64,000 bases of DNA, taken from the IMG/VR virus record IMGVR_UViG_3300029705_000098. One strand, written 5' to 3'. Below are positions 2,876-22,644 of this stretch, piece by piece; position 1 is the first letter of the stretch, and each line of letters begins with the position of its first letter. The notes under the pieces were generated by a model, which had not been told where the DNA came from, searched no databases, and worked only from the letters and a program-made list of their open reading frames with translations. This stretch comes from an uncultured virus (IMG/VR IMGVR_UViG_3300029705_000098). Lineage: Duplodnaviria; Heunggongvirae; Uroviricota; Caudoviricetes. The position numbers and the translations under genes are program-made.

Positions 2876-2878
2876 AAG

Positions 2879-3849: not shown

Positions 3850-3940
3850 AACATAATTCTATAACTTTTGTAGATGAAAGTAAATACCATTGAATTTTTT
3901 ACTGCAACCGCAATAAAAAATTCGGTAGCCTCAAAAAACT

Positions 3941-5200
3941 TTAATTACCTCTGCGATTACAATAGGTTTCCATAGCATATCTAACGGCGTCAATACTGTG
4001 GTTGTCGGCATCAGGGTAGGCGCTAATGAAGTTTCCATCTCTGTCACGTTCATACTCATAGTTTACAAACTCGTAATAAGTCTCGGGGCATCTGTTTTTG
4101 TCGATATAGATATGTCTAAGACCTTGTAGCCACTTAATTCCGTAACGAATACTATCAGGTCCTTTTTTTGCAGGCCTAATAAATGCTCCATATTCTCTAA
4201 AGTCGGCAATGGATTTTTCTTCCGCACTATCTGCTGTTACCAACTCTGCCCTCTTTAGCTTTCTTTCCTCATCATATAAGCGATGGAAAGTATCTTCGTT
4301 ACGTGTTTTATATGTAGTAAACTCATCAAAAATGTACAAGTCAAGTTTTTTGGCGTCAAAGTGCATACGAACAAATCTGAAGGGGTCTTTTGCAAAACCC
4401 CAGTCAATCCCATTGTATATATGGTCGAATGAGCCCACCATTTGTGACATATCAAGGTCACTCGCATTTTCAAAAACATCACCACCTGTGCCGGTAGCAA
4501 CGCCAAGATATTCGTGTTCATACGCTCTAGGGTTTATTGCCTTAAGTTCTTCCGCTTCCTCGTAGAATTGTTCGCCAAGCCATTCTCTGGGAACATCTAA
4601 ATAAGTGTTCCTGACAACTATTGTGTTCATAGAACGCTTATACATCTTCTCGGCATACATATTTGCCCAGTTATTCTTTGAGATAGGTGGATTGAAAGTT
4701 CTAAAGTCCCAGTACAGTTTACCCCCACGCATTGTGGACTGTGTAACTGTACGCAGTTCATTTTCTCCTGCAAACTGGTCCATTTCCTCGAACCAAGTAA
4801 TACCAATATATCCAAACTTAGGCTTAATGGATTTAATCTTCTGAGGTTTATCCAGTCCTAAGAAGTATATTTTCTGCCCAGTGGGTTTGAATACGATAGG
4901 GTTTGAATACGATGCAGGGATATTAAATAAATCCTGCAATCCCAGTTTATAAATTCCCCATTCGATTTGCGCTCTGATTGAGTTTTGAATAGTATTTCCT
5001 ACTTTTCTAAAGCAGGCCGCGTGAACAAGCGGGTTGTTTACGATTAAAAGCGGTATAACTAAACCAACGAAAGAAGATTTACAACTACCTCTTCCTCCAG
5101 GAAATACAAAGTGAGTATAAGAGTGTTCAAGTACGTCCTTAAGCACCTCATCATACATAGGGATAATGCAATCTTGTACGTTTATATTAATTTTAGGCAT
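3941..5200 (-). CDS. terL: Terminase large subunit (PBSX family)
   Basis: Walker A GGRGSCKS, WFEE, FNPP, nuclease motifs GIDWG and NHSIDAVRY. Confidence 0.95.
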   Translation of the reverse strand: MPKININVQDCIIPMYDEVLKDVLEHSYTHFVFPGGRGSCKSSFVGLVIPLLIVNNPLVHAACFRKVGNTIQNSIRAQIEWGIYKLGLQDLFNIPASYSNPIVFKPTGQKIYFLGLDKPQKIKSIKPKFGYIGITWFEEMDQFAGENELRTVTQSTMRGGKLYWDFRTFNPPISKNNWANMYAEKMYKRSMNTIVVRNTYLDVPREWLGEQFYEEAEELKAINPRAYEHEYLGVATGTGGDVFENASDLDMSQMVGSFDHIYNGIDWGFAKDPFRFVRMHFDAKKLDLYIFDEFTTYKTRNEDTFHRLYDEERKLKRAELVTADSAEEKSIADFREYGAFIRPAKKGPDSIRYGIKWLQGLRHIYIDKNRCPETYYEFVNYEYERDRDGNFISAYPDADNHSIDAVRYAMETYCNRRGN

Positions 5201-5589
5201 TAGTTTCCTGGTGTTCTTGAGGGTCTTGTAGCAACAAGATTACAAGATAATCCTTTCGCTTTCGTTCCGTCTGCTTTAATTAACTCCACATTGTCTTTGC
5301 AACTACCAAAATATCCTTCAAACGGTTCGGGTTGATAGGGTAACTGTACCATATGGCTTGCAACAGGCTCGGTAAGTTTCCACCAAAGTCTATCATATTC
5401 CTCTGCATTACGCGGAGTGATGAAATTAAGTGTAAAGTTATAGAATGTTCCTATAACTTCTCTGTGAAGAACACCGTCCTCAGTACGATTGGCAGTTAAG
5501 TCAAGAATATCTCCCTTTCTATCCATAGGAGAAAGGAGCGGTACTTTATACTCTATCCCGTCAATCTGTATGTACTTACTTATCGGCAT
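5200..5589 (-). CDS. Distal-tail (Dit)-like small tail protein, atypically located
   Basis: ILD..ANRTEDGVLHREVIGTFYN...YD.L...L..PV.SH...LPY resembles proteins usually encoded right after the tape measure in Clostridia siphophages. Confidence 0.5.
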   Translation of the reverse strand: MPISKYIQIDGIEYKVPLLSPMDRKGDILDLTANRTEDGVLHREVIGTFYNFTLNFITPRNAEEYDRLWWKLTEPVASHMVQLPYQPEPFEGYFGSCKDNVELIKADGTKAKGLSCNLVATRPSRTPGN

Positions 5590-6109
5590 TTAAGTCGTCC
5601 TCGTCATCATCGCATAAGTCAGGAGATGCTACATAGGGGTCGTTATCTTCTACATCAGGCAAATCGGGGTTAGTAGTATCATTAGACCTTCCCCAGTTAA
5701 GCGTAATCGTAAATTCGTTGTCCTTGCCTTTATTAGCAATTTCCTTTGCGTCAATCTGTCTCTTGGCAAGTTCCTTTGAGGCGTCAAGACGGTCCTTAAG
5801 AGTAGCATCAAGTCCGAATTGGTCTTTTACCTGTCCTCTCATAACTCTTGTTTGAAAGCACATAATTTCCTGTGCGCTTGCGATATGCTCACTCTGGAAG
5901 AGTTCAAATTGTTCGTCTACCTCTTTCTGTATCTTAGGCTTAGTAAGAAGTTTTCTTCCGTACTGCGCGGGAGAATTAGTATTAAACCCTGCTTGTTTAA
6001 CCGCCTTACCTGCATCTCCAAGTTCCAAGTACAGAGTTACGAACTTCTTTTCCCTAATAGACAGCTTATACTCCTGTCCTTTTGTGTTACCGTGTCCTCT
6101 TGTAGCCAT
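5576..6109 (-). CDS. terS: Terminase small subunit
   Basis: HTH region EKKFV..Y......AV..AG and DRL.AS.ELAKR. Upstream of terL. Confidence 0.85.
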   Translation of the reverse strand: MATRGHGNTKGQEYKLSIREKKFVTLYLELGDAGKAVKQAGFNTNSPAQYGRKLLTKPKIQKEVDEQFELFQSEHIASAQEIMCFQTRVMRGQVKDQFGLDATLKDRLDASKELAKRQIDAKEIANKGKDNEFTITLNWGRSNDTTNPDLPDVEDNDPYVASPDLCDDDEDDLNADK

Positions 6110-6111
6110 AA

Positions 6112-6429
6112 TCAGTGCTCCTCATAATATTTTGCCTTAGCCGCTTCCCAAATCTCATTATCGTGCGGGACTTCAAATCCCATAATCTCATAATAATAAT
6201 CTCTTAAAAACAGGGTAATCTGAATTTGAGAACAAGAGGAAAATAGTTCTGACTGAGTAGACTTATTCTTTTCCTCTGATTGAATTTGCTTTTTAACGTG
6301 ATAGCGGGTAACTACTTTATGCTTATCTACGCTATAAAATTGGGAAGTAGTAATAAGAATTAACTCCCCTTTAAAAAGGAGAGCCTGCTGTAACTTCTTA
6401 ATAGTACGAGTTTGACCTGCCGCACCCAT
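6112..6429 (-). CDS. Hypothetical protein
   Basis: 105 aa with an AGGAGG RBS. Confidence 0.6.
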   Translation of the reverse strand: MGAAGQTRTIKKLQQALLFKGELILITTSQFYSVDKHKVVTRYHVKKQIQSEEKNKSTQSELFSSCSQIQITLFLRDYYYEIMGFEVPHDNEIWEAAKAKYYEEH

Positions 6430-6450
6430 TATCGTCTCCTCCTGGAAGAC

Positions 6451-6711
6451 CTACGACTGCGAACCGCTCTCCGTCTGTATGTAACTTTCTGACGGCTTGC
6501 CATTCAAATCACCTACGCCTATCATAGTATTAGCATTTCCCTCTGTATACTGGTCCACTGAATACTCTTCAACGGGCAAACTAATATACCAGAGAAACGC
6601 GCCAATAGTAGCAAACCAAAGAGTTAGAACGACTATAAATGCTATAAACCACCTTCGGCTATTCGATTTAAGTTCGTGCAACATCTCGGTCGCAAGAGTT
6701 TCTTGTTCCAT
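6451..6711 (-). CDS. Small single-pass membrane protein
   Basis: Hydrophobic segment WFIAFIVVLTLWFATIGAFLWY. GAGG RBS. Confidence 0.6.
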   Translation of the reverse strand: MEQETLATEMLHELKSNSRRWFIAFIVVLTLWFATIGAFLWYISLPVEEYSVDQYTEGNANTMIGVGDLNGKPSESYIQTESGSQS

Positions 6712-7120
6712 AATCTATAATTCCTCATATCTGTAATTAAAATATACTGTTAATCCCTCGTCGTTCCTGCTCCGTAGAGACTTACTGGAGACCCTCGATA
6801 CAATGTATCTCTTAATTACATATACAACATAACATATTTTTACCCGATTAGTCAAGAACTTCTGGCTACAAAACTCGTGGACAAATTTGAAAATGATAAT
6901 CATTATCATTTTTACTTTTAATTTTTACGCTTTTACGGGGTGTCTTATGGGCGTTTTTGCCCCCACGCTTTCTCCAATCTCCAGACTACTTTTATATGAC
7001 CCCATACCCATATATTTCAACGATTTCCGTACTTTATCTACAAAGTTCGAGGAGATTGTATGCGTATCATAGTGACTCATGTTACCAAGGTGTGACCAAA
7101 TATGCCCACGTGTCACAATG

Positions 7121-7159
7121 TTTACAATTTATTCACAGATTGTTTACAGGCCGTTCATA
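7121..7159 (+). promoter_or_regulatory. Four 11-bp-period TTHACA-like boxes
   Basis: TTTACA-N5-TTCACA-N5-TTTACA-N5-TTCATA. Confidence 0.6.
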
Positions 7160-7287
7160 GGTCGCTAAGGGATAAGGGTTGACAAACAAATAATAATATG
7201 ATTGTCAAGTCAACCTATTTGTGCAATATGTCAAATATTTAATTGATTGTTTGACATAAAAAAATTATTGAATTGTCAATAAAATAG

Positions 7288-7316
7288 TTGACAAGTCTAC
7301 TGTATGACGTTATAAT
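7288..7316 (+). promoter_or_regulatory. Consensus sigma-A early promoter 1
   Basis: TTGACA-17 nt-TATAAT. Confidence 0.9.
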
Positions 7317-7397
7317 ATAGTCATAAAAGATAAGTAATAAATAACTACTACTTATCAAGTCAAGTCAAAAAAAGTTTGAAAAATTCAAAAAAAGTAC

Positions 7398-7426
7398 TTG
7401 ACAAACACTAAACAAGATGTTATAAT
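7398..7426 (+). promoter_or_regulatory. Consensus sigma-A early promoter 2
   Basis: TTGACA-17 nt-TATAAT with TG at the extended -10 position. Lies 110 bp after promoter 1. Confidence 0.9.
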
Positions 7427-7461
7427 AAAGACATAAAAGATAAGACAAAAACAAAAAGAAA

Positions 7462-7800
7462 GTGAGATTAACAACTATGACAAACACTTATGATTTCAAA
7501 GTCTTTTTCAAAGACAATACTACTAGAGTATATAAGAGTAGTTCATTACAGACACTCTACAAATATTTCCTGTATACCCCGCGACTTGAATTTTCTATAG
7601 ATGATATAGACCATATTGAGTTGGTGCGCCAGTATAAATACTTCTCTTATAAAAGAGGTTGTATGTGTATGTATGAGGTCGATGAGACACTATACAATAA
7701 ACTCGCCAATGAGTATCTCCTTGACAAGTCTAACTTGAGCAAGCACGGTATTACATCCATAGATGCGTATATTAAGTACGTGTTATCCTTTAATCTCTGA
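7462..7800 (+). CDS. First early hypothetical protein
   Basis: ORF directly after the tandem promoters. Confidence 0.55.
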   Translation: MRLTTMTNTYDFKVFFKDNTTRVYKSSSLQTLYKYFLYTPRLEFSIDDIDHIELVRQYKYFSYKRGCMCMYEVDETLYNKLANEYLLDKSNLSKHGITSIDAYIKYVLSFNL

Positions 7801-7864
7801 TATTCCGCGCGTATATGCGCTCGAATATATAAACTACTATTTTGTCATAAAGGAGGATATTACT

Positions 7865-8251
7865 ATGACATTTGAAACATTGGCTAAGTTAGCCGCAAAA
7901 GACACAATTACCTCTACTAATGAGGCTCATCGCACCATCACATTCCGCCGCAAGGGTTTCGGCCATATTGAGGCAACACTGTCCAAGGACGGTACCACGA
8001 TTACGTGTAGGTGCACTCCTAACTTCACCGAGGCTGGACTCGAATATGTCTACAATGAGAAGTCCTATCTGCATCCTGTAAGATTTAAGGCTATGCCTTA
8101 TGGGGAGTTCAGGAAACTCGTAACATTCCTCAACAATACGGAACTTGAGGGGAAGGCCCTTCCTAAGCCTGAACCTACAAGAATCCGCAAGCCGAACATC
8201 GAGGTCGATGAGGCAGAGGAACTTATCCAGGGTACAGTTGCAGGGGAGTAA
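7865..8251 (+). CDS. Early hypothetical protein
   Basis: Start moved to the ATG after AAGGAGG (MTFETLAK...). Confidence 0.65.
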   Translation: MTFETLAKLAAKDTITSTNEAHRTITFRRKGFGHIEATLSKDGTTITCRCTPNFTEAGLEYVYNEKSYLHPVRFKAMPYGEFRKLVTFLNNTELEGKALPKPEPTRIRKPNIEVDEAEELIQGTVAGE

Positions 8252-8313
8252 CCCTCCCCCGCACACCCTAAAAATCCACTTCTATAATTCCTATTAAGTT
8301 AGGGGGAAATTAC

Positions 8314-10141
8314 TATGGCTTATGTATATGACTATGCAAGACTCCTGAAGGAGAATGGTTACAAGTTCTGCCACGAGAATGTCGAAGGATTTGACAAGTG
8401 GTATACGCACGAATACAGGTTTGGGGAAGGCAGGTGATAGTATGTGGGACGAATTAACATACTACGGGGAATGCCGTAATGAAGCCGAGGAAGACTTCTA
8501 CCTCGAACTTTCTGAAAATGCAAACCGCTACTATAACCCCGATTTAGTAGAAGAATGACCGTTATCAGGGTGGTCAAGGGGGAAATCATTGACCACTCGA
8601 ATAACGACCATACTATAAAGGCCGTTAAGAAAGGGGAAGTCTTATATGAAACTTATAGACTGCCTAAATAAAATACTGGACCTATTTGACCAAACATACG
8701 CGTGTGCGGTTGTTAGTACCGCAACGGGGGAAATAATATGTCCTTTAGAAAGTCCACTGAAGATTACCACGCACGTTAATCACCATCTTAATGTGGGTAA
8801 ATGTGTATTTGACTTCGACCGAGAATCCATAATTATATACATCGAATAAAGGGGGAAATTATCTATGACTATCCAGCAACGCGAGAATTTTGCCATTGTT
8901 CCAACCATTTCCGTAATGTGTATGGCGTTTGTATCTGCGTATGACCCTGAGCCAACTATTGAAGTTCGCCACACCCATGTTAAAGGGGAAATACTGTTTA
9001 GGGGAACACGTACCGAAGTGATGAACCACTATATGAACACCGACTGGCTTCTGGCATCTATGGCGCTAAGAGATGGGTATATCGTAATGGCTGCCGCTCT
9101 TCCGAGTGAAGATATTTAAGTTTTAGGGGGAAATGACCTATGTCTATCTATGATTTACTTTATGTAATGGATAATATGAACTTCGATATTATTATCCAGA
9201 ATGATGCCCTGATTGATGAAAAGGGGGAAGGAGTACAGTTTGAAGGGGAAGTTTCCGACTTCAAAATGACTGACCTCTACGATGAAATCCAGGACGAGGA
9301 AGTAACTGACCTGTACACGCTTGCAGATGGAAGAATGTATATCTGCTATAACCAGTAAAGGGGGGGAATCACTATGAAAACCGCTGTACAAAGAAAATGG
9401 ACGGAAGAAACTATCCGCGTTCTTGTGCAAACAAACGATGGAGTATTATATGGTGCTTTAATGCAACTGTATAAGAGGCAGACTTCCGCAGAAAGAAGAG
9501 ATGGAACTACCAGAGTACGCAACGGGGAAGGCTTCAACTCCATAGATGCCAACTTTATGAGTAGCCTTGCCATATACTATATGCGGCACGGATATCTTAC
9601 AGATAACCAGAAGATTGTCGCCAGAAGAAAACTGCAAAAATACACCAAGCAACTTACCAAGATTGCGAATAAAGAAATCTAAGGGGGAAACCACTATGTA
9701 CACCGTAACAAATTTCAAGACCAAGAAAGCACTTAAGGAAGCAGTCACACGTGGAGATTGCGTCAGGGTTTATCAGCCAGGTCCATTCGGGGGAAACGAA
9801 CCGTCAGATGGCTGGGTATGTCTTGAGGGACCGCACTACCCTGAGCCACATAAATGGTATGCTGAGGCGCTATTACAGGGCGGTCACGTAGTTAAGGTAA
9901 AGTAAGAAGGGGGGGGGAACTCATGGAAACACCCGAATTTAGGAAAGCAAAATCAGTAATACTAAGTAACCTGAAAGATGGTTCAGTATCTGTAAAAAGC
10001 AGGAGGACGGGGGAGGACTTTATAATCGCAAGGCAGTATAACTCCTATGATGGCTGGTTTGTGTATAAGGGATGTGACCTTATCGTAGGAGATGTTACGA
10101 TTGACCACGCAATAAGGGTATTGTTGCAGGAAACAAGGTAA
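8314..10141 (+). other. Array of about 8 small early genes (e.g. 8646-8849, 8865-9119, 9140-9358, 9374-9682, 9696-9905, 9923-10141)
   Basis: Tightly packed short ORFs, most preceded by AGGGGG(G)AA-type RBSs. Confidence 0.7.
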
Positions 10142-10157
10142 CTATGTTTTGCGTGTG

Positions 10158-10212
10158 TTTACAGATTATTCACAGGTTATTGAAGATTTATTAAATGTTT
10201 TTATGCTATAAT
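10158..10212 (+). promoter_or_regulatory. Repeat-box promoter (extended -10, no canonical -35)
   Basis: TTTACA-N5-TTCACA-N5-TTGAAG-N5-TTAAAT followed by TGcTATAAT. Confidence 0.7.
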
Positions 10213-10356
10213 ATTAGTATAAATGATATATAAGGAGGAACTAAAATGAGCCCTTTGGATATGTTTTTTATGTTTATTGTTTGTTTTTCAGTATTTAAGA
10301 TTATCCAATTATGGATAGTTTGGGAGTTGAAGGGGGAAAAGGAGGTTAAATAATTT

Positions 10357-12139
10357 ATGGCTACTATTTATACAACTTATCCTGAGAAAGCAGAAATCGG
10401 AATACCCGAGTTCTATGGGAAACTTGCAAAGTTAATGTTTGGAAAAGAATACGACCACTACGACTGTTCTAAGGTATGTGTGGGGAAAAGTATTCAGGAC
10501 GACATATTCAACTATTACAAGGGAAAAGGAATAGAAGAATGGGAAATCGGAATGTTATGGGCATGCTATGGACCAAAAGCAACTCTTAACGGATATGAAG
10601 TCGAGGCAGATGCCGACTGGGCATCAGATGATTAAAGGAGGAATAACTATGGCACTTCATTGGTTATGGAAAGATAAATGTGGGGAAGCCACATTCAGAT
10701 TTTGGGACGGTGAAGAAAGAACCGTAAGCCTGTATGAGGGAAATGCTTTCCTTATATTCATTAACGAATACAAGGAGAATGGTAAGGATATGTATAACCT
10801 GTTCTCGTTCTTTGCGGACGAGAACCACGCAAAGAATATGTTAGGACTGGGTAAGGGGGAAAATGCACATAACACCTTTAACACGGAAAGAGAAAAGTTG
10901 ATTAAGGTACGCCTTAACAAGAAGAAGTGCAAAGCAGGAAAGATTATTTCCTTACTTGTGAGGGCGTTTGATGACCTTACGATTGAATTATACAAGGAGT
11001 GATTAGTATGGCAAGTGTATGGAGCATTGATGCCTGGGCAAACCCAGAAGGGTGGGATTATAACGACCGACAATACGTAGGAAACATTAGTGTGCCTGAA
11101 AATGCAACTAATGCGGATATTATAAATGCCCTATACGACGGGGAATTTATAAAAACAAAAGAGTTGGAGTTGTTTTCTATAGAGGATTACTTTAATGGTT
11201 CTGCACTTATATATGAGGTACAAAATGCAGAAACCTACGAACCCTTGTATGTGATAGAACTTAAGGAGCAATAATTATGAATAAGTACAGTTTTAAGTGG
11301 CACGGTAAGAAGTATTATCTTCTTGGGGAAGATGCTGACGGAGATAGATTCTACTTAGAAGAGGCACATTGGGATTGTGGCTGGTATTGGGGAGGCGGAT
11401 ACGTTGAAACCTTTACTAACAACAACTTCCCTGATAGGTCGAAAGACATAAGTTCTCACCAGCACTTTTATGGATTATTTCTTAATAACCCAAGATTGAA
11501 TGGGTTTGACGCTTTCAAAACGTTCTTTAGGGAAACTCCGTTCACTGATAAAGAACTGTGGGTGATAATCGAACTTATGAAATCCTTTTATACTGCAAGG
11601 GAGTATTCTGATTTCCTGCACATAGGGGGAGCGCACTATACTACTAACCCCTGTAAAGGAACGATAGTAAATGATGAGGAATATACAAGGATTAACGCAA
11701 GTGTAATCCCTGCACTTATGGAAGAACTTTACAAGATTTTAGGAGGTTAAGCGATATGGCTGAAAAACACTTCGGTTTACATCTGTTCTGGGGAAATCAT
11801 TATTACTTTATGGAGACTGACCGCAAGAACGTCACTGACGCTGTTTCCGAACTGTTTGCAAGGGAAATGTTCCTTAAACACAAGAAATACGATGTGTGGG
11901 AGCGTGCCTCTATTGCGGATAAACAGAAGATGATAAAGGTGCTTAAATCCTCAATACACCCGTGTGTGTTTGAGATAAAAGAAACCTCGACAAAAGTAAA
12001 GTACCTCTCATATCTAACCCTTGAACACGCACAGGACGAAAACTCAAGCAGAGGGGGAGGCTCAATTCCTGAAAAATACTGGGAGAAAGAAGTTACGATT
12101 TTCTGGGAGGGCGATTTAACGGAATACTTTGGAATGTGA
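10357..12139 (+). other. Five early hypothetical genes (10357-10635, 10649-11002, 10999-11274, 11277-11750, 11756-12139)
   Basis: Contiguous ORFs with GGAG/GGAGG RBSs. Confidence 0.7.
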
Positions 12140-12148
12140 TATATAATG

Positions 12149-12202
12149 TTTACAAATTATTCATAGGTTATTAAAGATTTATTAAATATTTTGCTGTATA
12201 CT
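12149..12202 (+). promoter_or_regulatory. Repeat-box promoter
   Basis: TTTACA-N5-TTCATA-N5-TTAAAG-N5-TTAAAT followed by TATACT. Confidence 0.7.
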
Positions 12203-12242
12203 ATAAGTATCAAAGCAAAAAGCACGAGACACGCAAAGTGAG

Positions 12243-12950
12243 GTGATGATTGTGGAAGAGGTATTTAGGGGAATAACTGCTCCCCTGTACAACGATTTAA
12301 TATCTCGCGGACAGAATATTTTAATCGCAGGAATGTGTGGGTCAGGTAAATCTGTAATCTGCAACGGAATGATAAATTCAATTCTGTATAAGAGCCTTGC
12401 GGAACATCAGATGGTTCTTATAGACCCGAAGAGAGTAGAGTTTAACAGGTACAAAGAAACCGCTCACTGTATTAAGTGTGCAACGGATTTACAGGAAATT
12501 GAAGAAACACTTGACGGAGTTCTCGGGCTAATCAATAAAAGATTTGCCTATATGCAGGGGAAAGGCTTGCAATTATATGACGGAACTACCATTCATTTAG
12601 TCATAGATGAGATGGCAGACCTTATGTTGACAAGTAAAACTGCGGTAAACAAGTTACAGAGAATTTGTCAGATAGGGAGAGCCGCTAAAGTACAAGTCAT
12701 ATCGGCTACACAATGTCCGTTAGCGAGCGTTATTCCTACGAAGATTAAAGTGAACTTTCCTATAATAATAGGACTGCATACGGCGTCTGCACGACACTCA
12801 AGGAACATCTTAGAAGTTGAGGGTTGTGAAACATTGCCGATGTACGGGGAGGCGCTGATAATGTATCCCACTACGGGAATTGAGCGCGTCAAAGTCCCAA
12901 TGATTTCCGAAGAATGGTTAAAGAAGATAATAATTGCGGATAAAAGATAA
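12243..12950 (+). CDS. FtsK/SpoIIIE-family ATPase (motor core only)
   Basis: ILIAG..GSGKS, LIDPK.VEF, LVIDEMADLM, GRAA and ATQ motifs. Confidence 0.85.
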   Translation: MMIVEEVFRGITAPLYNDLISRGQNILIAGMCGSGKSVICNGMINSILYKSLAEHQMVLIDPKRVEFNRYKETAHCIKCATDLQEIEETLDGVLGLINKRFAYMQGKGLQLYDGTTIHLVIDEMADLMLTSKTAVNKLQRICQIGRAAKVQVISATQCPLASVIPTKIKVNFPIIIGLHTASARHSRNILEVEGCETLPMYGEALIMYPTTGIERVKVPMISEEWLKKIIIADKR

Positions 12951-12962
12951 AGGAGAAATACT

Positions 12963-13268
12963 ATGGCAAAGATTATTAGTGGAGCATCAAAGACAGGACA
13001 GAAGTTATTGGCAAAAGCAAGTCATTTTGAAGGAACTGACTTAGATGATGTGTATGGTAGATACTCGTCGGCTAAGGCAAGTGCTATGCGAGATTGTAGG
13101 GATTGGTGCGCTGAAGATAATGGGTACAACTTCCGAATAATCAGTCACAACACAAGTAATTTCTCGGTTGCGTGGAATTACATCAACAAGGAAACAGGGG
13201 AAGAAATGACAAGAATTGAAACATCTTGCTCTCGGTATATCATAGACGGCTCAAGGGTAAGCGAATAA
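12963..13268 (+). CDS. Hypothetical protein
   Basis: 101 aa, AAGGAG RBS. Confidence 0.6.
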   Translation: MAKIISGASKTGQKLLAKASHFEGTDLDDVYGRYSSAKASAMRDCRDWCAEDNGYNFRIISHNTSNFSVAWNYINKETGEEMTRIETSCSRYIIDGSRVSE

Positions 13269-13285
13269 TTAGTAAGGAGAGTGCT

Positions 13286-13510
13286 ATGGATAATGCTGGG
13301 GAACTTTATCGTTTAATCGAAAGAATTAATAAGGAAAGAATAAAACAGGGAGTTTCTTATAGAGACTTGGCAGAGCGATGTGGGTATAAACGCGAACAGA
13401 TGAACCAAGTTGCTATCGTATTAAGCCATAAAGTTACTCCCAGACTTGACACGTTGTTAAAGATTATGAACGCTTTGGGTTTAACCCTTGCTATAACATT
13501 AAAGGAGTAA
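13286..13510 (+). CDS. XRE-family HTH regulator
   Basis: R...GVSYRDLAERCG...PRLDTLLKI..ALG. Start placed after AAGGAG. Confidence 0.8.
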   Translation: MDNAGELYRLIERINKERIKQGVSYRDLAERCGYKREQMNQVAIVLSHKVTPRLDTLLKIMNALGLTLAITLKE

Positions 13511-13514
13511 TGCT

Positions 13515-14828
13515 ATGTCGAACTATGAATTTATTGGAGATTTCATTCGTGGGGAAAAGAGATTTGGAGCGTACTGTCACTTAGGGTTTTCTGACGATAA
13601 GTTGTATAACTACTCCACAGTAATCTGCACGATTGACAGGGAGAACAAGAAGGCACGGGTAAACGTTATGAGGTATAGTGTTACTACCAGCCGTATTCAA
13701 AGTATGGTTAGAGGAGCATTAAGACAGAACGGATATGAGATAGAAGATTACGTAGGAGAGCCTTGCAGTTATTGGAACTATGGTTATCAGGGTGCGGGGA
13801 ACGTAACGATTGATGATATGAGGAGCAGACGTTATGAGTAAGGAACTTGCAAACAAACTGTATAAGTTGGTAATCGAAACTGAAGGAAATCCCAGCATAA
13901 GTCAAATCAAAGAGTTGGGTTATAGTGAAGGACAGGCGCTTGAAATGACTATCAGAATGGCAAACGCCGACAGAAAAAAGTTAGTAGAGATTGCGAAAGA
14001 ACGTATCACGGAGGATTAAGTATGGAAGAAAAGAAGTATCTGTATATGAAAAGATATAGACCTGACTATGCAATCATTGTGCAGTATTGTTGGGGAAAAT
14101 ACTATATTGCAAGAATGTGCTCCAGCGAACAGAAGGCCATTGCGTATACAATTAGAACATACAAGACGTTAAGCGGGGCATCACGTTATTTGGAACGCTA
14201 TGAGGAACGTTACGGGGAAAATGCAGGAACTACTCCTGAATTATCTTATGGAACAGAAAAGGAAATCATAGCAGGAAAATATTGGAGGGCGGAATGAAAA
14301 ACTTAATCACTTCTAAGTACACGCTTAAGATAAAGGAAATCAAGACAGGGAATATCGTTGATGCCAAAGTGTTTGATAACTACAATCAGGCCAACGAGTT
14401 TGTACGTAAACACCCTTGTGGGGAAGATGTACGATATGATTTTACCCGAATAGATTACTGCGGGGAAGAAGAAGTATCAGAAGTCGATGGAATAACAATA
14501 GAGATTTCGGAGGGAAATTAATATGGCATACGACTTATCAAAAGTTATGAAGATTGTGGATAGAAACTCGGACAGGGTTGTAATCAAAGTAAACGCGGAC
14601 GACCCTTTAACAATCGCTATGTACCCTTTTATTCCTGGCAATACTGCATACATTACAGTAACGCTTGGAGATAATCACGTTCTAACAGTAGTTAAAAAGG
14701 ATAATTCTACTTTTTCTTTTCACTGGGGACTTGGCGGGCATACCTTAATCAGCGACAGTTTGGAACAGTTACGCAGGGAAGTTGTTACTTTCCTAAAGGT
14801 GAATGGAGTTTACTTAAACTATTCATAA
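13515..14828 (+). other. Five early hypothetical genes (13515-13841, 13834-14019, 14022-14297, ~14294-14521, 14523-14828)
   Basis: Coupled ORFs with RBSs. Confidence 0.65.
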
Positions 14829-14875
14829 TTTGTTCACAAGTTGTTGAATATTTATTAAATGTTTTGTTGTATACT
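14822..14875 (+). promoter_or_regulatory. Repeat-box promoter
   Basis: TTCATA-N5-TTCACA-N5-TTGAAT-N5-TTAAAT followed by TATACT. Downstream leader shared with the 12149 promoter. Confidence 0.7.
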
Positions 14876-14906
14876 GTAAGTATCAAAGCAAAAACGAAAG
14901 TGAGCG

Positions 14907-15557
14907 TTGAATATGGAAAACGAAAAGATTTTGGAAAAAGTTAAGAAGTTATTTGCACTTGCGGATAACAATCCCTCCGCAGAAGAGGCAAAGTCAGCCG
15001 CACTTATGGCACAGAAGTTAATGGTGGAAAACAATATTGCTATGTGGGAAGTTGAGAACGTTGACCTCGAAAAGAAAGAGGAAATCGGGGAAGAGGAAAT
15101 CGAAGTTCCTGCAAAGAAGTGGAAGTACACATTAGCACATACTGTCGCAGACAACTTCCGTGTAAAATTCTTTTTGCGTGGAAAAGGAACATTTATCTTC
15201 TACGGGCATAAGACAGATGCCAAGATTGCAGTTGAAACCTTTAAGTATCTGTTTAATACGGGGAACAAACTCGGTATGCAGTTATATCGAGAAGCCAAGG
15301 AAAAGTATGGATATGCAGATAATGTTTATAACTCTTGCGTAATGGGTTTCTGTGCAGGTATTAGAGAGGCTCTTGCAGAACAGAGCAAAGCACTAATGGT
15401 AATTGTTCCTGAAGATGTTAAAGAGGCATACAAAGAGCGTTCCGCAGGGTTTAAAACATCTCACACATCTTCTCCCAGAGCATACAATGCAGGAGCATTT
15501 AGTACAGGGAAAACTCACGGATACAACGCTATGCGAAGAAAGGCGCTTAACGGGTGA
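14907..15557 (+). CDS. DUF2786 domain protein
   Basis: N-terminal KILEKVKKLFALA..NPS.EEA..A...AQKLM. Confidence 0.75.
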   Translation: MNMENEKILEKVKKLFALADNNPSAEEAKSAALMAQKLMVENNIAMWEVENVDLEKKEEIGEEEIEVPAKKWKYTLAHTVADNFRVKFFLRGKGTFIFYGHKTDAKIAVETFKYLFNTGNKLGMQLYREAKEKYGYADNVYNSCVMGFCAGIREALAEQSKALMVIVPEDVKEAYKERSAGFKTSHTSSPRAYNAGAFSTGKTHGYNAMRRKALNG

Positions 15558-15724
15558 TTGATTATGGCAAAAGAAATACCGATAAAAATAAAACTAAAGA
15601 CACTCTGCCACAATGCGTATGAATTTCATACAGTAATGCGAGGAAAATTCTTTAAGCGACAATACATCGGGTATACAAAGCAGGAAGCAGTTAAACGCTT
15701 TCAGAAGTGGTTGGGGGAACAGTT

Positions 15725-16724
15725 ATGACACTCTATGACTTACTAAAGGTATTCAACAGCGATTTTGATACCTATGACAATGTTTATGACGCGGCTGTTA
15801 CCGTATGTTCGTTTGATGAGGAAGATGAACAGTCAACGGAATATTATGATAAATTTCGTATAGAGATTATGAAGTTTATCGAGGTAACTAAAGGAAGTAA
15901 ACGAGCACTGTGGTGTAATTGGTCTGATTTTATCAAACGCAATATCCAGGTATTCAGAGAGTTTGAAGCCAAGTATTGGTGCAAGCAATATGTAGATGAG
16001 GACGATTTTATCTATCAGTGGATAAAAGAGATTGATGCCTGGGTAGCGGGGGCAGTCAGCGAGCATATATACAAGGAATTTGTTGAAAACTATATGTCAA
16101 GAATGAAGCCTGTTATGTCTGAAGGGGAAAAACTTATGCTTACCCTTAGCTGGTTGATTGAGCACGAACACGTATGGAATGATTTTAAATCTAAATACCC
16201 CGAAATTGCAAAGCCGTTTGAAAAGGAGGAAAAATAATAATGACAAGAGAAGATTTTGAAAACGGATTAATCGCAAAAATAGAGGACATCAAGGCGTTCT
16301 ATAAGCAGTACAACCCACAAGCATTTGAAGAAGGTGGTACCGTATATCTTACAATGTTTATTAACGGGGACTTTATAAACGCAAACAACAGATACTTCGT
16401 CCAAAACGAAAATAATCCTGACTGTACATTTGTTGTAAATTGTTCAAAGCGGGGAGATAATCCTGTACGCCACGAAAGGAAATTTTTAATATGACAAACG
16501 AAAAAATGATAGAGGAAGTCGGGAAGTGCAAGAAAAGATTTTCGCCCGAACTTATTGAAAGTCTGGTTAAATTCTATGATGAGTTTGACCCATATGGGGT
16601 GCTTGACGAATACGGAGACATTAGTGTTAAGTATCGTAGGGAACGACTGAAAAGGGATATTAGATATATTCTCAGGGAGGACCCCAGACAAGTAATTAAG
16701 GATATTAGAGCCGCTATGGCATAA
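15725..16724 (+). other. Three hypothetical genes (15725-16237, 16240-16494, 16491-16724)
   Basis: Coupled ORFs. Confidence 0.6.
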
Positions 16725-16784
16725 ATAAGATGGAAGTCGAGATAGTTCTCGTTTACCATAAATAAAAAATAAAGGAGCCAGAAT

Positions 16785-17621
16785 ATGGAAAAAGCAACAT
16801 TTTGTGAAACAATCAAGGAATTACTCAGTGATTTAGGCGAGGTAGTAGTCCAGAACGTACATAAGCCTCAGGGAGACTACACAGGACTGACACTTAAACT
16901 TAAGTCTGGTCTTTCCCCTATAGTTAACCTTGACAGACTGTATGATTATTATTGTGAACAGGGGTGTGACGTAAAGGACTGTGCCAATATCGCAAGAGAG
17001 ATTTTGCGTACTGCAACGGAGAAAATGCCCGAAATTAACGCTGATGATTTTCTTGATTGGGAAAAGATTAAGGACAAGTTGTTCTTAAGATTAGTAAGAG
17101 ACCCGTCAAACAATATTGCAAGAAAGGTTGCAGATTTGTTTTTAATCGCCTGCATACAGGTAGAAGAAAAAGATGGAACATCATTGGCTGGAGTTGTGCC
17201 TGACTTATTAAGTGCGTGGGGAGTTGACGAGGATACTGTGTTTGAGCAGGCAAAATCAGTACAGGAACACATCAGACCGCTTAAGTTTGGGTGCCTGCCT
17301 GACATTCTCGGGATAAATGTTAAAGAAAATGAAAGAGATATGTATTTAGTATCCGTTGAACAGGGCATATGTGGTGCATCTGCAATCTTCTATGACGGTG
17401 TTTTTGACAAACTGCGTGAAACTCTCGGGGACTTTTATCTTATACCCTCGTCCATTAACGAGTTCCTTGCTATTGCTAAAGCAAAGATACCTGACGTTAA
17501 AGAACTTGCTTGCTTTGTCAAGTTTACAAACGCCTCTAACGTTGACCCTAGAGACAGACTGTCCGACTCCGTATACGAATATGATTTTGACAAGAAGGAG
17601 TTTAGAAAGGTAGAATGTTAA
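16785..17621 (+). CDS. DUF5688-family protein
   Basis: DW..IKDKL..RLV, GAS.I.Y, FYLIPSSI.E and LSDSVY.YD motifs. Confidence 0.75.
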   Translation: MEKATFCETIKELLSDLGEVVVQNVHKPQGDYTGLTLKLKSGLSPIVNLDRLYDYYCEQGCDVKDCANIAREILRTATEKMPEINADDFLDWEKIKDKLFLRLVRDPSNNIARKVADLFLIACIQVEEKDGTSLAGVVPDLLSAWGVDEDTVFEQAKSVQEHIRPLKFGCLPDILGINVKENERDMYLVSVEQGICGASAIFYDGVFDKLRETLGDFYLIPSSINEFLAIAKAKIPDVKELACFVKFTNASNVDPRDRLSDSVYEYDFDKKEFRKVEC

Positions 17622-17770
17622 AGATTGAGTTTGAGTATAGGGACGCATACACAAGGGGAAATTGGTCTAAGCAGTCTTGTGTTGTTGGTTCGGTAGAAGA
17701 GTGCAAAAAGATATATGGTCTTGGAGTAGATTGTGAATATCGTATTGTAAAAGTTGAGGAGGTGAGTTAA
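17615..17770 (+). CDS. Small hypothetical protein (51 aa)
   Basis: Manual translation MLKIEFEYRDAYTRGNW...; below the ORF-track cutoff. Confidence 0.55.
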   Translation: MLKIEFEYRDAYTRGNWSKQSCVVGSVEECKKIYGLGVDCEYRIVKVEEVS

Positions 17771-17899
17771 ACTAGTAGCATCAATTTTGAGGTGTTACTA
17801 TGAGCGAGGAAGAACTTGAACTGTGGTTATTATATATTGCAGAGCAAGACACTTCCGATAATCAAAACCTTTAATCATCAATTTCCCATATTCCGACGC

Positions 17900-17935
17900 A
17901 AGCGCCCGTAGAGTAATCTGCGGACGCTTTATTTT
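17900..17935 (+). terminator. Rho-independent terminator ending the early region
   Basis: AAGCG-CCCGTAGA/TCTGCGG-A-CGCTT hairpin followed by a T-rich tail. Confidence 0.7.
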
Positions 17936-18096
17936 ATGTCTATATAATATATGCGTATTTAACTATGCTGTTATTCGCGAGGAATTGCACTAGGTTTCGC
18001 GTTGCATAATAAAACAACATAGCAACATACATTTCTATTAGAAGCGAAAATAGACTACATTCCACGCATTGTATCAATATGTGATTTTCTTGCATT

Positions 18097-18128
18097 AATA
18101 AAGGTGAGTAGAACTTAATCTACTCACC
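18097..18128 (-). terminator. Terminator after recA
   Basis: GGTGAGTAGA/TCTACTCACC 10-bp stem followed by TTTATT. Confidence 0.7.
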
Positions 18129-18159
18129 CAATTACAATACCTGCTGATTAAATATCTGA

Positions 18160-19200
18160 TTACGTACTACGCTCATCAACTAATTTTTCAAGTTGCTCTA
18201 ACACATCTGGATTTTCGTTAAGATAATTCTTTACTTTATCCTGTCCCTGTAACTTTACATCAGTAAGTTCAGGAATTGTATACCACGCGCCAGACTGCTC
18301 AACAATTCCGTACTCTTGTGCAACCTCAATTAAGTCTGCAAGATAGTCTATTCCCTTAGTGAAAATCAGTGTGTAATAACCTGTTCTGCGGTCAGGTAAT
18401 CCCGAAGTAGTCTTAACGATTGAGAATTGTATTTTAGCCCCTACGGGATTCCCAGCGGCACGAGTAAGTTCTTTTCCTTTATCATCAAAGAATGAACCCT
18501 GTCTAAAACTGACACGCAACGAGCACATATACTTCCAAGCCTTGCCACCCGGAGTTTTAGTTCCGCCCCACATACTGTTCATATCTTCTCTCTCTTGATT
18601 TATACCAACACACGTGCATTGATACTTACTGGCCATCATAGACATATCCCTTGCGAAACGAGAAAGCGACTTTGATATTCCACCATAAAACTGGTCAGAA
18701 TAGTCTTTCTTTTCATCTAACTCACCGTCACTCATCATAGCGGCAAGGCTATCAATAACGACCAAACAAATCTCCCCTGTTTTAACCGCCTCACGAATAA
18801 AAGTAAAAATTTCCTCGGCAGATTGGCTCTTAGGTTGGAAAATGTACAGTTTATCTATGTCTACTCCAATCTTAGTGGCCCATTCTTGGTTAAGTCTGTT
18901 TTCGGTATCACAATACAAAACAGCACGTTCTTGATAATCCTTATCTTCAGACACCTTACGTTCTTCCTCTTTCTGAAAGTGTGCAACAACATCTAAGGCC
19001 GTTGTTGTTTTTCCTCCACCTTCAGGTCCGAAAAACTCAATCAATTTATTAATCGGAATACCACCATAAGTACAGTAGTTTAATCTGGGGGAAGTAAATT
19101 TAATTTTTGAGTAATTAAACTGCAAAGAGCCTCTTGAGAGAACTTCCTCTTTTACTTTCTTGTTTACCTCTTTCATAAGAGCGTCCATCTTACTTGGCAT
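18160..19200 (-). CDS. recA: RecA/UvsX-like recombinase
   Basis: GPEGGGKTT, VVIDSLAAM, INQ.R, TPGGKAWK and GAWY motifs. Confidence 0.92.
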   Translation of the reverse strand: MPSKMDALMKEVNKKVKEEVLSRGSLQFNYSKIKFTSPRLNYCTYGGIPINKLIEFFGPEGGGKTTTALDVVAHFQKEEERKVSEDKDYQERAVLYCDTENRLNQEWATKIGVDIDKLYIFQPKSQSAEEIFTFIREAVKTGEICLVVIDSLAAMMSDGELDEKKDYSDQFYGGISKSLSRFARDMSMMASKYQCTCVGINQEREDMNSMWGGTKTPGGKAWKYMCSLRVSFRQGSFFDDKGKELTRAAGNPVGAKIQFSIVKTTSGLPDRRTGYYTLIFTKGIDYLADLIEVAQEYGIVEQSGAWYTIPELTDVKLQGQDKVKNYLNENPDVLEQLEKLVDERST

Positions 19201-20977
19201 TTAAAACACCTCTTTCTTCTAATATTGTTCTTACACCATACATATCTAGTATCGTTTCACATAAATCTTTCCACTCTCTATCACACACCCCATAATTAAA
19301 AAATCCACGCAAATAATCTTCGGAAATTGCTATCAAGTCCGAGTATTGTAACTGAATACTTCCAGGAATCATATCAGACAATTTTTTATTATTGAGCGTA
19401 TATCCGTTTTCTTCCAGCAACACGGGAAGATTAACGTTAAAGCGATAGATTTGGGTACTTGCATCTAATACCCACAATATTGGGGCCTCGAAAAATATTT
19501 TGATACAGTGGGTTGTCTCAAAATATTCTTTAGGGGACATTCCTGAAGGATTAATATGCCACTGAATTTCAGTTATGCGTAGCATCACGCACCTCCCATC
19601 ATATTAGTTAGCTGTTGCTCCTGCATCCTTCTGCTAATTGCTTTCTTACACGAGGATAATAATTCCTGTGCGTTATCTACTTTTGACTTAACAATCTTAT
19701 ATGCTGTCTTGTATGCAATATCTACCAACTGTTCCTGCTGTGCGGCTAATTCTGCAAGAGTGTTCTTATCGTCAATAGTTCCCTTTTCGAGACTATTACG
19801 AGAAGTGTTGTACATTTCCTTGTATACCGCAGTAGCGATAGAACTCCTTAACCCTAATTGTTCACACATTCCTCCAGCAAAATAAATAAGTGAAGATAGA
19901 TTAAGACAGAAAGTTTCAAGTTCTTGGTCTGTAGGGGGATTGTCTTTCTGACACAACCTATCGTCAATATGAGAAACATACCCATCAAGGTCTTTTACAT
20001 ACACCTTGATAATATCATCAACAATGCCGTCCATCTGCTTTGAGTTATCTTCAATATGCAATTTAATGGCATTAATCTTATCCATCTCGATGTTATCAAA
20101 TTTACTCATCTTCTTTACCCTCCTTCTTTTTCTCATTTAAGTACCAACTATACATAAATAACCAAAATAATATTGCCTGCATTACATTAAAACAAATACT
20201 AATTGTTAGTGCTATCTCCATCATTAGCTCCTTTCTCATTGGGGTCTATAACGAACTCATAAAGCGGATAAAAAAATACCAAACCCAGCATTATATTGCT
20301 TTGCCGAAAGTCTAATCTTCCCCTCTTTAAGGAGTTTCTTGAATGTAGACTTTGCCACGGTAGGGAACACCTCAAACCACCCGTCAAAATATGTTTGAGT
20401 GATTAACTGGTATGTTGCGCCATTATGCAGTATTCTGTCCTTCTCTGTAACCTCAAATGTTCTTTTCCCACACTTAATTTTCATTCTTTACCTCTTTCTG
20501 CATCTTTGCTTCACACACAGGACATTTAGCAATCGTGTTTACTAACGCACGAGTTCCACAATTAGAACAATAATAGGTATCATATGGAGTTTCTGATTTC
20601 TCTTTTACCCACTCTGCACATAATTTTTCTTTACTCATATCTTGCTCCTTAAGTAAATATAAATAACGTTTTGCCATTTCACAGATACAGTATAGGTTAT
20701 CTTGTTCTTCAAAGTGTTTTTGAATGGACTCGATTATCCTAAATAGTGGGTCTACATTATTGATTACTGCCTCACAGTCAACATCTGCATATTTTACCCA
20801 CCCGTTTACGTCTAACTTTGATTGCTCCATTTCAATTTCAGAAATGATTAAAGGCTTTATAGGAAGTAATTTAATCTCTCCCCCGTCAATCTGGTAATAA
20901 AGTGCGCGTTTATTAAAATCATCTTCTCCCATACAAGTCCTCCAAAAATTTATCCATCGCATATTCGAAATAAACAC
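19190..20977 (-). other. Four hypothetical genes (19190-19588, 19585-~20109 helical, 20257-20484, 20474-~20931 with C-terminal CxxC-CxxC ribbon)
   Basis: Coupled ORFs in the recombination operon. Confidence 0.6.
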
Positions 20978-21401
20978 GTTTCTTTTTGCCTGGAACTACT
21001 AGATGGGGAATCTTCTCTAGGTCTTGTATGTTAAGAGATTTGTATCCAAACCACATCATTGTCTTTATCATATCTATTGATACCCAAACAGTTAAATCAT
21101 GGTCTATAAACCATATCATAAATCCTGCTATTACTCCTGGTTTTAACCATTTCTCGCTCATTCCGTCTAACTGCCCTTTTCTGATACAAGAAAAAGGAAG
21201 TGTATTTCCCCTATGAGATTTACACTCCACATAAAGTTCGTGCGGTTTTTTATACACGATAAAATCAGAAGGGTTATCCACTCCCTTTAACTTCTTGGGA
21301 GCGTCACGAAGTCTGTCAATAGACACATCAGGAACTTTTTCAAACGATTCCCTTACCGCATCTTCAAACTTTTTACCGATGTTATTGCGCTTCCTAGCCA
21401 T
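20919..21401 (-). CDS. recU: RecU-like Holliday junction resolvase
   Basis: GKKFE, PSDF, VECKS and LPFS.I...Q motifs. Start moved to MARKRNN. Confidence 0.75.
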   Translation of the reverse strand: MARKRNNIGKKFEDAVRESFEKVPDVSIDRLRDAPKKLKGVDNPSDFIVYKKPHELYVECKSHRGNTLPFSCIRKGQLDGMSEKWLKPGVIAGFMIWFIDHDLTVWVSIDMIKTMMWFGYKSLNIQDLEKIPHLVVPGKKKRVYFEYAMDKFLEDLYGRR

Positions 21402-22188: not shown

Positions 22189-22324
22189 TATATCTTCTCC
22201 TCTAAAAGTGTTAGTCTTACACTCTTTTATAAAAGATACCCGGCTGTAACGGGGAGAAAAACTACTAAACTCGCTATGAATTTCACATAAGAAAGTGAGA
22301 CATTACTATGACAAAGTATGTCTA

Positions 22325-22399
22325 TGGCTGAGGTGGCAGGATTCGAACCTACGAGTGTTGGAGTCAAAGACCAATGCCTTACCGCTTGGCGACACCTCA
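22325..22399 (-). tRNA. tRNA-Gln(UUG), CCA encoded
   Basis: Cloverleaf TGAGGTG/CACCTCA, anticodon loop CTTTGAC, T-loop TTCGAAT, GCCA end. Confidence 0.93.
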
Positions 22400-22479
22400 G
22401 TGTTTGCTAGTCTGTTCCTAGCAGCCAGCAAGTCCTTGAGTTTAAAGTCTGCATATGACTTGCAAGATTTAGACTGTTG

Positions 22480-22638: not shown

Positions 22639-22644
22639 ATATTT

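Follow-up and report, generated by a model that had tools for sequence, protein, structure and literature searches.

According to our analysis, a 64,000-nucleotide stretch of DNA from an uncultured tailed phage (IMG/VR record IMGVR_UViG_3300029705_000098; hereafter, the window) carries a one-way array of the hexamer GGGGAA, with 40 copies on the + strand between positions 8149 and 17660 and one opposite-strand copy at 16913. Selection acts on the word at the nucleotide level; the word is polar, specific to one region beside the packaging genes, and explained neither by ribosome-binding sites nor by coding needs. Related phages place other words likewise, which points to a directional signal. 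The reading that we favor, to which we assign a probability of roughly 0.3, is that a directional DNA machine, for which an FtsK-like ATPase lacking the gamma domain is the prime candidate, uses GGGGAA as a polar DNA array.

Enrichment and polarity of the GGGGAA array

The array occupies a block of 32 co-oriented small genes (7477 to 17770, + strand; 35 to 278 amino acids) organized in four transcription units. Counted on both strands, the 64-kb window holds 54 copies of GGGGAA, compared with 18.4 ± 4.0 (maximum, 26) in 100 dinucleotide-preserving shuffles. In the 54 kb outside 8149 to 17660, four copies are found on the + strand (19088, 21005, 21474, and 24077) and nine on the − strand; the original prediction, which had been made by manual counting (about 39 versus 1, and about a dozen elsewhere), was right in this respect. 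The enrichment in the block is roughly 24-fold. The array begins 2 kb upstream of the small terminase gene and thins with distance: the density is 7.7 copies per kb in 7801 to 10145, 3.5 in 10146 to 12140, 3.7 in 12141 to 14830, and 1.7 in 14831 to 17800, after which the + strand ramp continues to about 0.6 per kb, while 17801 to 64000 as a whole has about 0.1 per kb per strand. The four + strand copies just past the convergent junction that closes the block (19088 to 24082) are antisense to − strand genes and compare with 0.9 expected, and the next 39 kb has none on the + strand. Because the block is the only + strand coding stretch, location on the + strand and location on the sense strand are inseparable in the window.

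As a yardstick, we computed the z score of the best hexamer (order-1 Markov model) in ten-kb stretches of 144 other viral loci, relatives in many cases. The 274 stretches have a median of 7.8 and a 90th percentile of 12.4, and the GGGGAA block reaches 14.0. The word enrichment in the block is strong, yet it is not unique among phages.

The copies are spread evenly over the genes. Within 7865 to 16237, 24 of the 27 genes have at least one GGGGAA in their coding sequence, where 17.9 ± 1.7 would be expected by length (P = 0.0006); no gene exceeds two, and the correlation between count and gene length is low (rho = 0.22; p = 0.27). The gaps between copies are regular, with a coefficient of variation of 0.42 in 8100 to 9950 (P = 0.0001) and of 0.57 in 10300 to 16200 (P = 0.005). 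The five final genes of the block (16240 to 17770) hold one GGGGAA between them. No flanking position is conserved, apart from a mild purine preference after the hexamer, and since the flanks are unconstrained, the unit is the hexamer itself and the copies are not fragments of a larger repeat.

Several other roles of a G-rich word were considered and set aside. A G-quadruplex was dropped on account of G runs that lie 40 to 640 nt apart, a −1 frameshift slippery site on account of a frame mismatch, and iterons or a centromere on account of irregular spacing and intragenic copies, whereas evasion of type III or bacteriophage exclusion (BREX) sites would account for the polarity but not for the enrichment. 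The sequencing runs containing the window sequence are animal fecal and gut metagenomes, and no RNA data set is listed among the 24 runs found. Contigs from four runs, aligned to window positions 1 to 20000, are identical to the window and show no polymorphism in the word, and no molecule ends were reported among them.

Coding-bias controls and ribosome-binding sites

Six of the 40 copies are purely intergenic Shine-Dalgarno (SD) sites, located 3 to 7 nt ahead of a start codon, and three more, at the end of a gene and at most 13 nt ahead of the next start, double as the SD of the following gene. The other 31 are coding only, which bears out the earlier claim that ribosome-binding sites alone do not suffice. 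Among the 34 copies inside coding sequences, 23 read in frame as GGG-GAA, and frames 1 and 2 account for 6 and 5, respectively. Shuffling synonymous codons within genes gives 14.54 ± 2.59 such copies (maximum, 23 in 1,000 shuffles; z = 7.5), and pooling codons over the block gives 10.72 ± 2.67. The enrichment survives the codon-preserving control that the original prediction had proposed as a check. When all hexamers were scanned by synonymous shuffling, GGGGAA came first (z = 8.0), with the runner-up at a z of about 5.

The preference is visible in each reading frame. Gly-Glu pairs are written GGG-GAA in 23 of 30 cases in the block (27 of the 30 use GGG) versus 3 of 82 elsewhere, and the opportunities in the two other frames are used in 6 of 10 and 5 of 25 cases, whereas genes outside the block use 3 of 58 and 1 of 94. 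GGG also accounts for 34 of the 159 block Gly codons that do not precede Glu, as against 84 of 824 in the rest of the window, and GGGGAA is mildly underrepresented on the sense strand of genes outside the block (7 copies versus 13.65 ± 3.22 after synonymous shuffling). Since ribosome-binding sites, codon usage, and dipeptide usage fail to explain the word, an oriented signal under selection is a fair inference. To this extent the earlier proposal of an oriented signal stands; its further assumptions, that the word is read on DNA rather than RNA and that this DNA enters first, go beyond these results.

The intergenic copies are part of a copied cassette, AGGGGGAAAnnnCTATG, found in the first operon (nine genes, 8315 to 10141, + strand; cassettes over 8301 to 9925) at 8301, 8850, 9125, 9360, 9682, and 9912. 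The ribosome-binding core of this operon is GGGG(G)AA, while the later block genes and the minus-strand open reading frames (ORFs) mostly have GGAG-type cores: a GGGG-type SD precedes eight of the nine first-operon genes but is seen just once among the 21 later genes of the block and once among 80 ORFs of the minus strand. A pattern scan of viral contigs for SD cassettes of the AGGGGGAAAnnnCTATG type returned 118 stretches with one match apiece, and none of the 80 that were retrieved is related to the block. Inside the gene at 8646 to 8849, an internal GGGGGAAATAAT-ATG (window 8727 to 8779) resembles a full ribosome-binding site; it opens an out-of-frame ORF of just 13 codons.

Two syntenic relatives carry another word at the same place

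Alignment of homologues of the FtsK/SpoIIIE-family ATPase encoded in the block yielded 80 viral loci, of which three, L001, L004, and L005, are syntenic with the window. In each, a + strand block of 9 to 11 kb is flanked by the genes of a large terminase subunit (TerL; 78 to 81% identity), a small terminase subunit (TerS; 56 to 65%), and a UvsX-like recombinase (48 to 56%). The block itself is hypervariable: 12 of 31 genes are common to L004 and the window, for L001 and L005 the ATPase is the only gene in common with it, and these two have 8 of 36 block genes in common with each other. The ATPase is the sole block gene found in all relatives, and homologues with 78 to 98% identity mark closer relatives in other collections.

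None of the three loci is enriched in GGGGAA (0 to 3 copies on the + strand). The blocks of L001 and L005 carry CGGAA instead, often as ACGGAA or CGGAAG, with strand ratios of 42:6 and 40:2, respectively. Synonymous shuffling gives 19.5 copies for L001 and 19.7 for L005 against 40 observed in each (z = 6.4 each), and the rare Thr codon ACG precedes GAA in 10 of its 22 uses in these relatives. In the complete 74-kb record of L005, regions outside the block also have many sense-strand copies of ACGGAA (49 reverse versus 37 forward), so the block is just about 2.7-fold enriched and makes a weaker case than the window. Past the junction, the array-strand word occurs antisense 8 times in L001 (5.3 expected) and 12 times in L005 (6.0 expected), while the sense strand there has 3, 1, and 3 copies of the own word in the window, L001, and L005, respectively. 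The even distribution over genes and the regular spacing seen in the window are absent in the relatives.

In the alignment with L004, 16 of the window copies fall in shared genes, and at the four positions where the amino acids are identical, L004 writes GGA GAG, GGC GAA, GGT GGG AAC, and GTG GGA AAG. On the basis of these comparisons, the relatives swap the word for others at short evolutionary distance, and the word is lineage specific and independent of gene content. The original prediction had held that absence of the word from related phages would speak against it: GGGGAA is indeed lacking, but L001 and L005 carry another word at the same place. In L001, moreover, the first four block genes (4065 to 4918) also have a GGGGG-type SD (AAAGGGGGTTTAAttATG); the unusual G5 ribosome-binding core of the first early operon is common to the window and L001 despite the different word in the coding sequences.

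No GenBank phage matched the block in a megablast, no close relatives emerged from single-protein scans with the UvsX-like and DUF5688 proteins, a metagenome scan for close relatives gave only short contigs with 30 to 55% identity, and the nearest of the virus records examined (37.9 kb, 52% complete) has two GGGGAA copies and evidently lacks the block.

One-way arrays in distant relatives and unrelated records

More distant relatives, with 43 to 49% ATPase identity, have a + block of just 1.5 to 3 kb in which the ATPase gene comes last, and their TerL and portal lie on the far side of it. Among 82 ATPase-anchored viral loci, 44 have at least 10 one-way copies of GCAGAA, CAGAAG, or TCAGAA in the 4 kb downstream of the ATPase gene; upstream of it, no such array was found in the 82 loci. 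Six of the 44 duplicate the count pattern of another locus, and flanks shorter than 3 kb are frequent among the other 38; when each distinct locus is counted once, the three words have orientation ratios of 443:18, 238:17, and 29:0, respectively. In L046, CAGAAG occurs 36 times, compared with 14.9 after synonymous shuffling (z = 8.2; frames, 17/15/4). The arrays of L046, L082, L028, and 41 other IMG/VR loci ramp over 6 to 13 kb and reach up to 18 copies per kb at the peak, and a complete 46-kb genome (G004) has a single array, which rises over about 13 kb and ends at the junction (G004:9900-23381).

The array of these phages spans the primase genes and a TerS-like gene (phrog_606; in L026, PF16677). 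Its peak consists of GCAGAAGGG units that run past the stop codon of the TerS-like gene into a GC-rich non-coding junction, which in the L046 type lies directly downstream of the ATPase gene, itself gamma-less and placed between terS and terL. In five loci, the array holds its DNA strand within the oppositely oriented ATPase gene (19:1); the array of L026 is 37:1 overall, and the gene directions were confirmed by family matches. One 279-kb contig of a Lachnospiraceae metagenome-assembled genome (MAG), L283, harbors an L046-type element with a GCAGAAG array in mid-contig. Because this element sits in the middle of a long bacterial contig, the L046 group is suggested to be temperate, with Lachnospiraceae as the candidate host family. 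Contig ends at 80 ATPase loci (8 within 500 nt downstream versus 2 upstream) are confounded by short contigs and were not used.

Unrelated viral records also carry one-way words, namely, ACGGAA at 28:0 in L186 (the last 10 kb of a 131-kb record) and GACGGA at 15:0 in L221. Both share a core with the words of L001 and L005, and the portions of L186 and L221 examined yielded no FtsK-family gene. This is a hint that the host may determine some of the words.

A proposed polar DNA signal for a directional machine

Taken as a whole, the original interpretation is partly supported: the oriented, selected signal holds, while the four mechanisms named for it (a Chi-like site, a translocase signal, a binding site for a protective protein, and a modification target) stay at the level of candidates. 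In the reading that we favor, GGGGAA, a positively selected word of one orientation in the fast-evolving early block beside the packaging genes, would act as a polar cis-acting DNA signal of the kind represented by Chi and the FtsK-orienting polar sequences (KOPS). A machine travelling on DNA would read the word on its way inward from the side of the terminase genes, at which the copies are most closely packed, and its likeliest motor would be the phage's own FtsK-family ATPase, encoded within the array. Since this ATPase has no gamma domain, a separate specificity factor would be required; presumably fast evolving, it would set the word, so that in each lineage a reader of its own would go with a purine-rich word that costs little to encode on the coding strand of the region. 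As to the role of the motor, we can only speculate that it might pull in the remaining genome after the first-entering segment or handle concatemers at packaging.

The ATPase (12252 to 12950, + strand; 232 amino acids) consists of the RecA-like beta domain only. It matches PF01580 (E = 4.9e-23) and, in a profile comparison, residues 208 to 464 of Pseudomonas aeruginosa FtsK (2IUU; E = 6e-40), and the chain stops about 30 residues past the beta domain, with no alpha, gamma, or membrane part. KOPS and SpoIIIE recognition sequences (SRS) are read by FtsK and SpoIIIE, and TraB recognition sequence (TRS) repeats (clt) lie beside traB in Streptomyces plasmids. The arrays resemble all three in being polar, purine-rich words that would orient an FtsK-family motor, and they resemble TRS/clt in that the cis site adjoins the gene of the motor, an arrangement matched in 44 of 82 loci by arrays that follow the ATPase gene on its downstream side. 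Going by the SRS quoted in PMC8190038, the unit of the distant relatives, GCAGAAGGG, equals the Bacillus subtilis SRS, GAGAAGGG, at 7 of 8 letters; the word of the window has 6 letters rather than 8 and is unlike the KOPS and SRS quoted there. The domain composition of the phage ATPase and the presence in L004 of the ATPase without the word are further differences, and the same two points weigh against the KOPS/SRS-like translocase signal named in the original prediction, although an FtsK-family ATPase is indeed encoded in the region.

A signal read on DNA is favored by ramps that follow distance and not operon borders, by the constant position of the arrays downstream of the ATPase gene, by the persistence of the strand inside the opposite ATPase gene, and by the modest antisense excess past the junction in the window, L001, and L005. 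Several observations weigh on the other side. Every array copy in the window is on the sense strand, and the regular spacing, with one or two copies per gene independent of length, is a better fit to a per-transcript function. L004, which in gene content is the relative nearest to the window, encodes the ATPase yet has no outlier word (its top word, AAGAA, has a z of 5.2, within the noise of the scan). Neither the 31 block proteins scanned nor 19 proteins from relatives gave an FtsK_gamma match at E ≤ 0.01, although a divergent gamma-like reader may have escaped this profile. The 131-kb record with the ACGGAA array has no PF01580 match in the 76% of it that was examined, so arrays can occur without this ATPase. 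Because the loci were anchored on the ATPase, the side and direction of their arrays are independent observations, but their nearness to the gene is not. Finally, late read-through transcripts could mimic the persistence of the strand inside the ATPase gene.

More tentatively still, and with rather little confidence, we consider that a family of gut phages of the Clostridia type may carry a phage-borne counterpart of KOPS, consisting of a gamma-less ATPase and a polar array next to the packaging genes, with rapid co-evolution of word and reader. The words would be GGGGAA, CGGAA, and GCAGAAG, in lineages that have 78 to 81% identical TerL or share only the ATPase; the array would begin at or just downstream of the ATPase gene, and the motor would move phage DNA directionally, drawing the genome in after the early segment or feeding concatemers to the terminase. 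Bacillus phages Sam46 and Sam112 have a small terminase with an FtsK_gamma domain, and its discoverers raise the speculation that the terminase is loaded, and packaging given its direction, at KOPS/SRS-like sites (PMC8190038). The likeness is that reading of an FtsK-type word would be tied to the start of packaging, since the arrays of the distant relatives peak in and beside the TerS-like gene. The part of that report drawn on here describes a domain fusion without an array, whereas we find arrays without a gamma domain.

Chi, KOPS, and similar polar words belong to the small set of DNA signals that give molecular machines a direction. Until recently they were known nearly only from bacterial chromosomes; the description of phages with one-way Chi sites in clusters dates from 2025. 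The arrays of uncultured gut phages are comparable, but they consist of lineage-specific words, are very dense, and occupy one defined part of the genome, beside packaging genes and an FtsK-family ATPase. If the reader is encoded by the phage, it would constitute a new directional DNA-handling system; if it belongs to the nuclease of the host, the arrays would disclose which Chi words uncultured Clostridia use and could serve to predict hosts from phage sequence; and if the word is read on RNA, it would represent a new early shut-off code.

Alternative explanations

Reading on RNA is a possible, if doubtful, alternative. GGGGAA would tag early cistrons for an RNA-binding protein or endoribonuclease, of phage or host origin, that silences or processes early mRNA by cutting the SD off in the first operon and within coding sequences elsewhere. 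T4 RegB, an endoribonuclease, targets GGAG in the ribosome-binding sites of early genes, and the word of the window is likewise short, G-rich, concentrated in the SDs of the first operon, and scarce in later genes. The sense-strand location of all 40 copies agrees with such a tag, as do the SD core, present in eight of the nine first-operon genes but rare in the rest of the block (1 of 21) and among minus-strand ORFs (1 of 80), the even spread (24 of 27 genes, two copies at most) with regular spacing, and the mild depletion of the sense strand of other genes (7 versus 13.65). Unlike RegB targets, however, most GGGGAA copies lie inside coding sequences, and the arrays of the relatives lack evenness per gene and, where they ramp over 6 to 13 kb, cross replication and terminase genes regardless of temporal class. 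The ramp even runs in opposite senses with respect to the transcript, being dense at the 5′ side in the window and at the 3′ side in the L046 group. A Pfam scan of 31 block proteins and 53 other small proteins detected no RegB-like or other nuclease and no RNA-binding family; most of these proteins have no match at all, and a ribonuclease of an unrecognized family may be among them. Predicted accessibility (0.50 unpaired versus 0.48 in other purine-rich hexamers; p = 0.69) is uninformative.

We deem it unlikely that GGGGAA is the recognition site of a host AddAB/RecBCD-type enzyme, placed near a DNA end, where it would halt degradation and promote recombination in the manner of Chi. Precedents exist in phages: clustered co-oriented Chi sites in LLS, MD8, and P1 are reported by Zheng et al. 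(Genome Res 2025, PMC12315714). According to the part of that report drawn on here, the lambdoid Escherichia coli phage LLS, for which the role is shown, has 23 Chi sites, 20 of them in the active orientation and half in the last 22% of the genome, while P. aeruginosa phage MD8, for which it is inferred, has 32 in one orientation and none in the other. These arrays share with ours a short word in tens of near-one-way copies, regional clustering, an excess beyond codon use, and variation by host group; the densities differ, at 2 to 8 per kb for the hexamer of the window versus about 0.5 per kb in LLS. The same source states that phages encoding their own recombination genes mostly lack Chi, and the window phage encodes a UvsX-like recombinase, a Cas4-like nuclease, and a resolvase.

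A word set by the host would explain why L001 and L005 both carry CGGAA despite sharing few genes, as well as the ACGGA-type arrays of the unrelated L186 and L221. In the L046 group, the purine-rich word is aimed at, and densest at, the junction by the TerS-like gene, which would fit the geometry of LLS if pac lies there. In the Lachnospiraceae MAG, GCAGAAGG occurs 271 times, versus 101 for the reversed word, but its strands are mixed within contigs (replication direction not determined). In the window, GGGGAA lies wholly in the sense strand of early genes and doubles as an SD, which sets it apart from Chi, and neither candidate end is compatible with both its orientation and its gradient if a G-rich Chi is assumed. 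With an end at about 7 kb, the gradient fits, but the strand used by a RecBCD-type enzyme reads TTCCCC, which to our knowledge is unlike any known G-rich Chi; with an end at the convergent junction, at about 18 kb, the orientation fits, but the density is lowest there. The Chi-like site suggested in the original prediction has a published precedent, but in the window either the orientation or the gradient is wrong at each end.

Equally improbable, in our view, is a by-product that has no reader, arising from a duplicated ribosome-binding cassette together with a lineage-specific codon-pair or context mutation bias in a foreign or fast-turnover block. The cassette AGGGGGAAAnnnCTATG is plainly copied from gene to gene, GGG is commoner in the block generally (34 of 159 Gly codons not before Glu versus 84 of 824), the block is hypervariable among relatives, and one-way hexamers with a z above 12 occur in about a tenth of the viral 10-kb stretches examined. 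A codon-pair bias would act in one frame, however, whereas GGGGAA is favored in all three; the unconstrained flanks argue against copies derived from a larger repeat; and neither the even spacing nor the independent retention of CGGAA in two diverged relatives is expected from drift.

The insertion contexts of 7-deazaguanine known from other phages are two or three bases long. It is highly unlikely that GGGGAA is the insertion target of the phage's DpdA-like transglycosylase, for although FolE, QueD, QueE, QueC, and the DpdA-like enzyme are encoded in the window, so that its DNA is probably modified at some guanines, we see no link between the pathway and either GGGGAA or a single strand of a single block, and the relatives change the word at short evolutionary distance.

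Gene layout around the array

The window represents most of a tailed phage genome of roughly 70 kb, and the ATPase homologues lie on contigs of 70 to 74 kb. For the terminase, the best matches come from Blautia and Clostridium phages (45 to 48% identity). The genes of the portal and of both terminase subunits are encoded on the − strand at 1121 to 6109, with the large subunit at 3941 to 5200 and the small subunit at 5576 to 6109. The − strand from 64000 down to 18160 encodes tail proteins, a full replication and recombination set, and a complete 7-deazaguanine DNA-modification pathway (FolE, QueE, QueD, a phosphoribosyltransferase-like protein, QueC, and the DpdA-like transglycosylase; 36324 to 39849), which is located directly downstream of the DNA polymerase gene. 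Between these regions, the GC skew is positive only in 8001 to 18000, in agreement with the single + strand coding region. The block and the replication module meet in a convergent junction (17906 to 18129) with terminator-like hairpins at 17906 to 17923 (+) and 18129 to 18102 (−).

A Pfam scan of 31 block proteins left 26 without a match; the matches include the FtsK/SpoIIIE ATPase, a Cro/C1-type helix-turn-helix (HTH) protein of 74 amino acids (13286 to 13510, + strand), a DUF2786/DUF7168 protein, and a DUF5688 protein. Upstream of the block, two + strand promoters match the sigma-70/sigma-A-type consensus at 12 of 12 positions: TTGACA-17-TATAAT at 7288 to 7316 and a second one with a TG extension at 7398 to 7426, 50 nt ahead of the first gene (7477). 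The status of the block as early is inferred from this layout and from the consensus promoters. The later transcription units are each preceded by a copy of an 80-nt promoter/operator element on the + strand (10151 to 10230, 12142 to 12221, and 14815 to 14894).

An operator-like sequence, TGTTTACA-N6-TTCAYAGGT, is present twice at 7117 to 7162, upstream of the consensus early promoters, and once in each internal element (10154 to 10181, 12145 to 12172, and 14818 to 14845). It is probably the binding site of a phage regulator, for which the Cro/C1-type HTH protein is a candidate. The promoter cluster itself (7170 to 7430) contains numerous TTGACA/TGTCAA repeats, and on read alignment the stretch 7368 to 7405 drew contigs of many other organisms, with a depth of 34 to 43 compared with 2 to 10 elsewhere.

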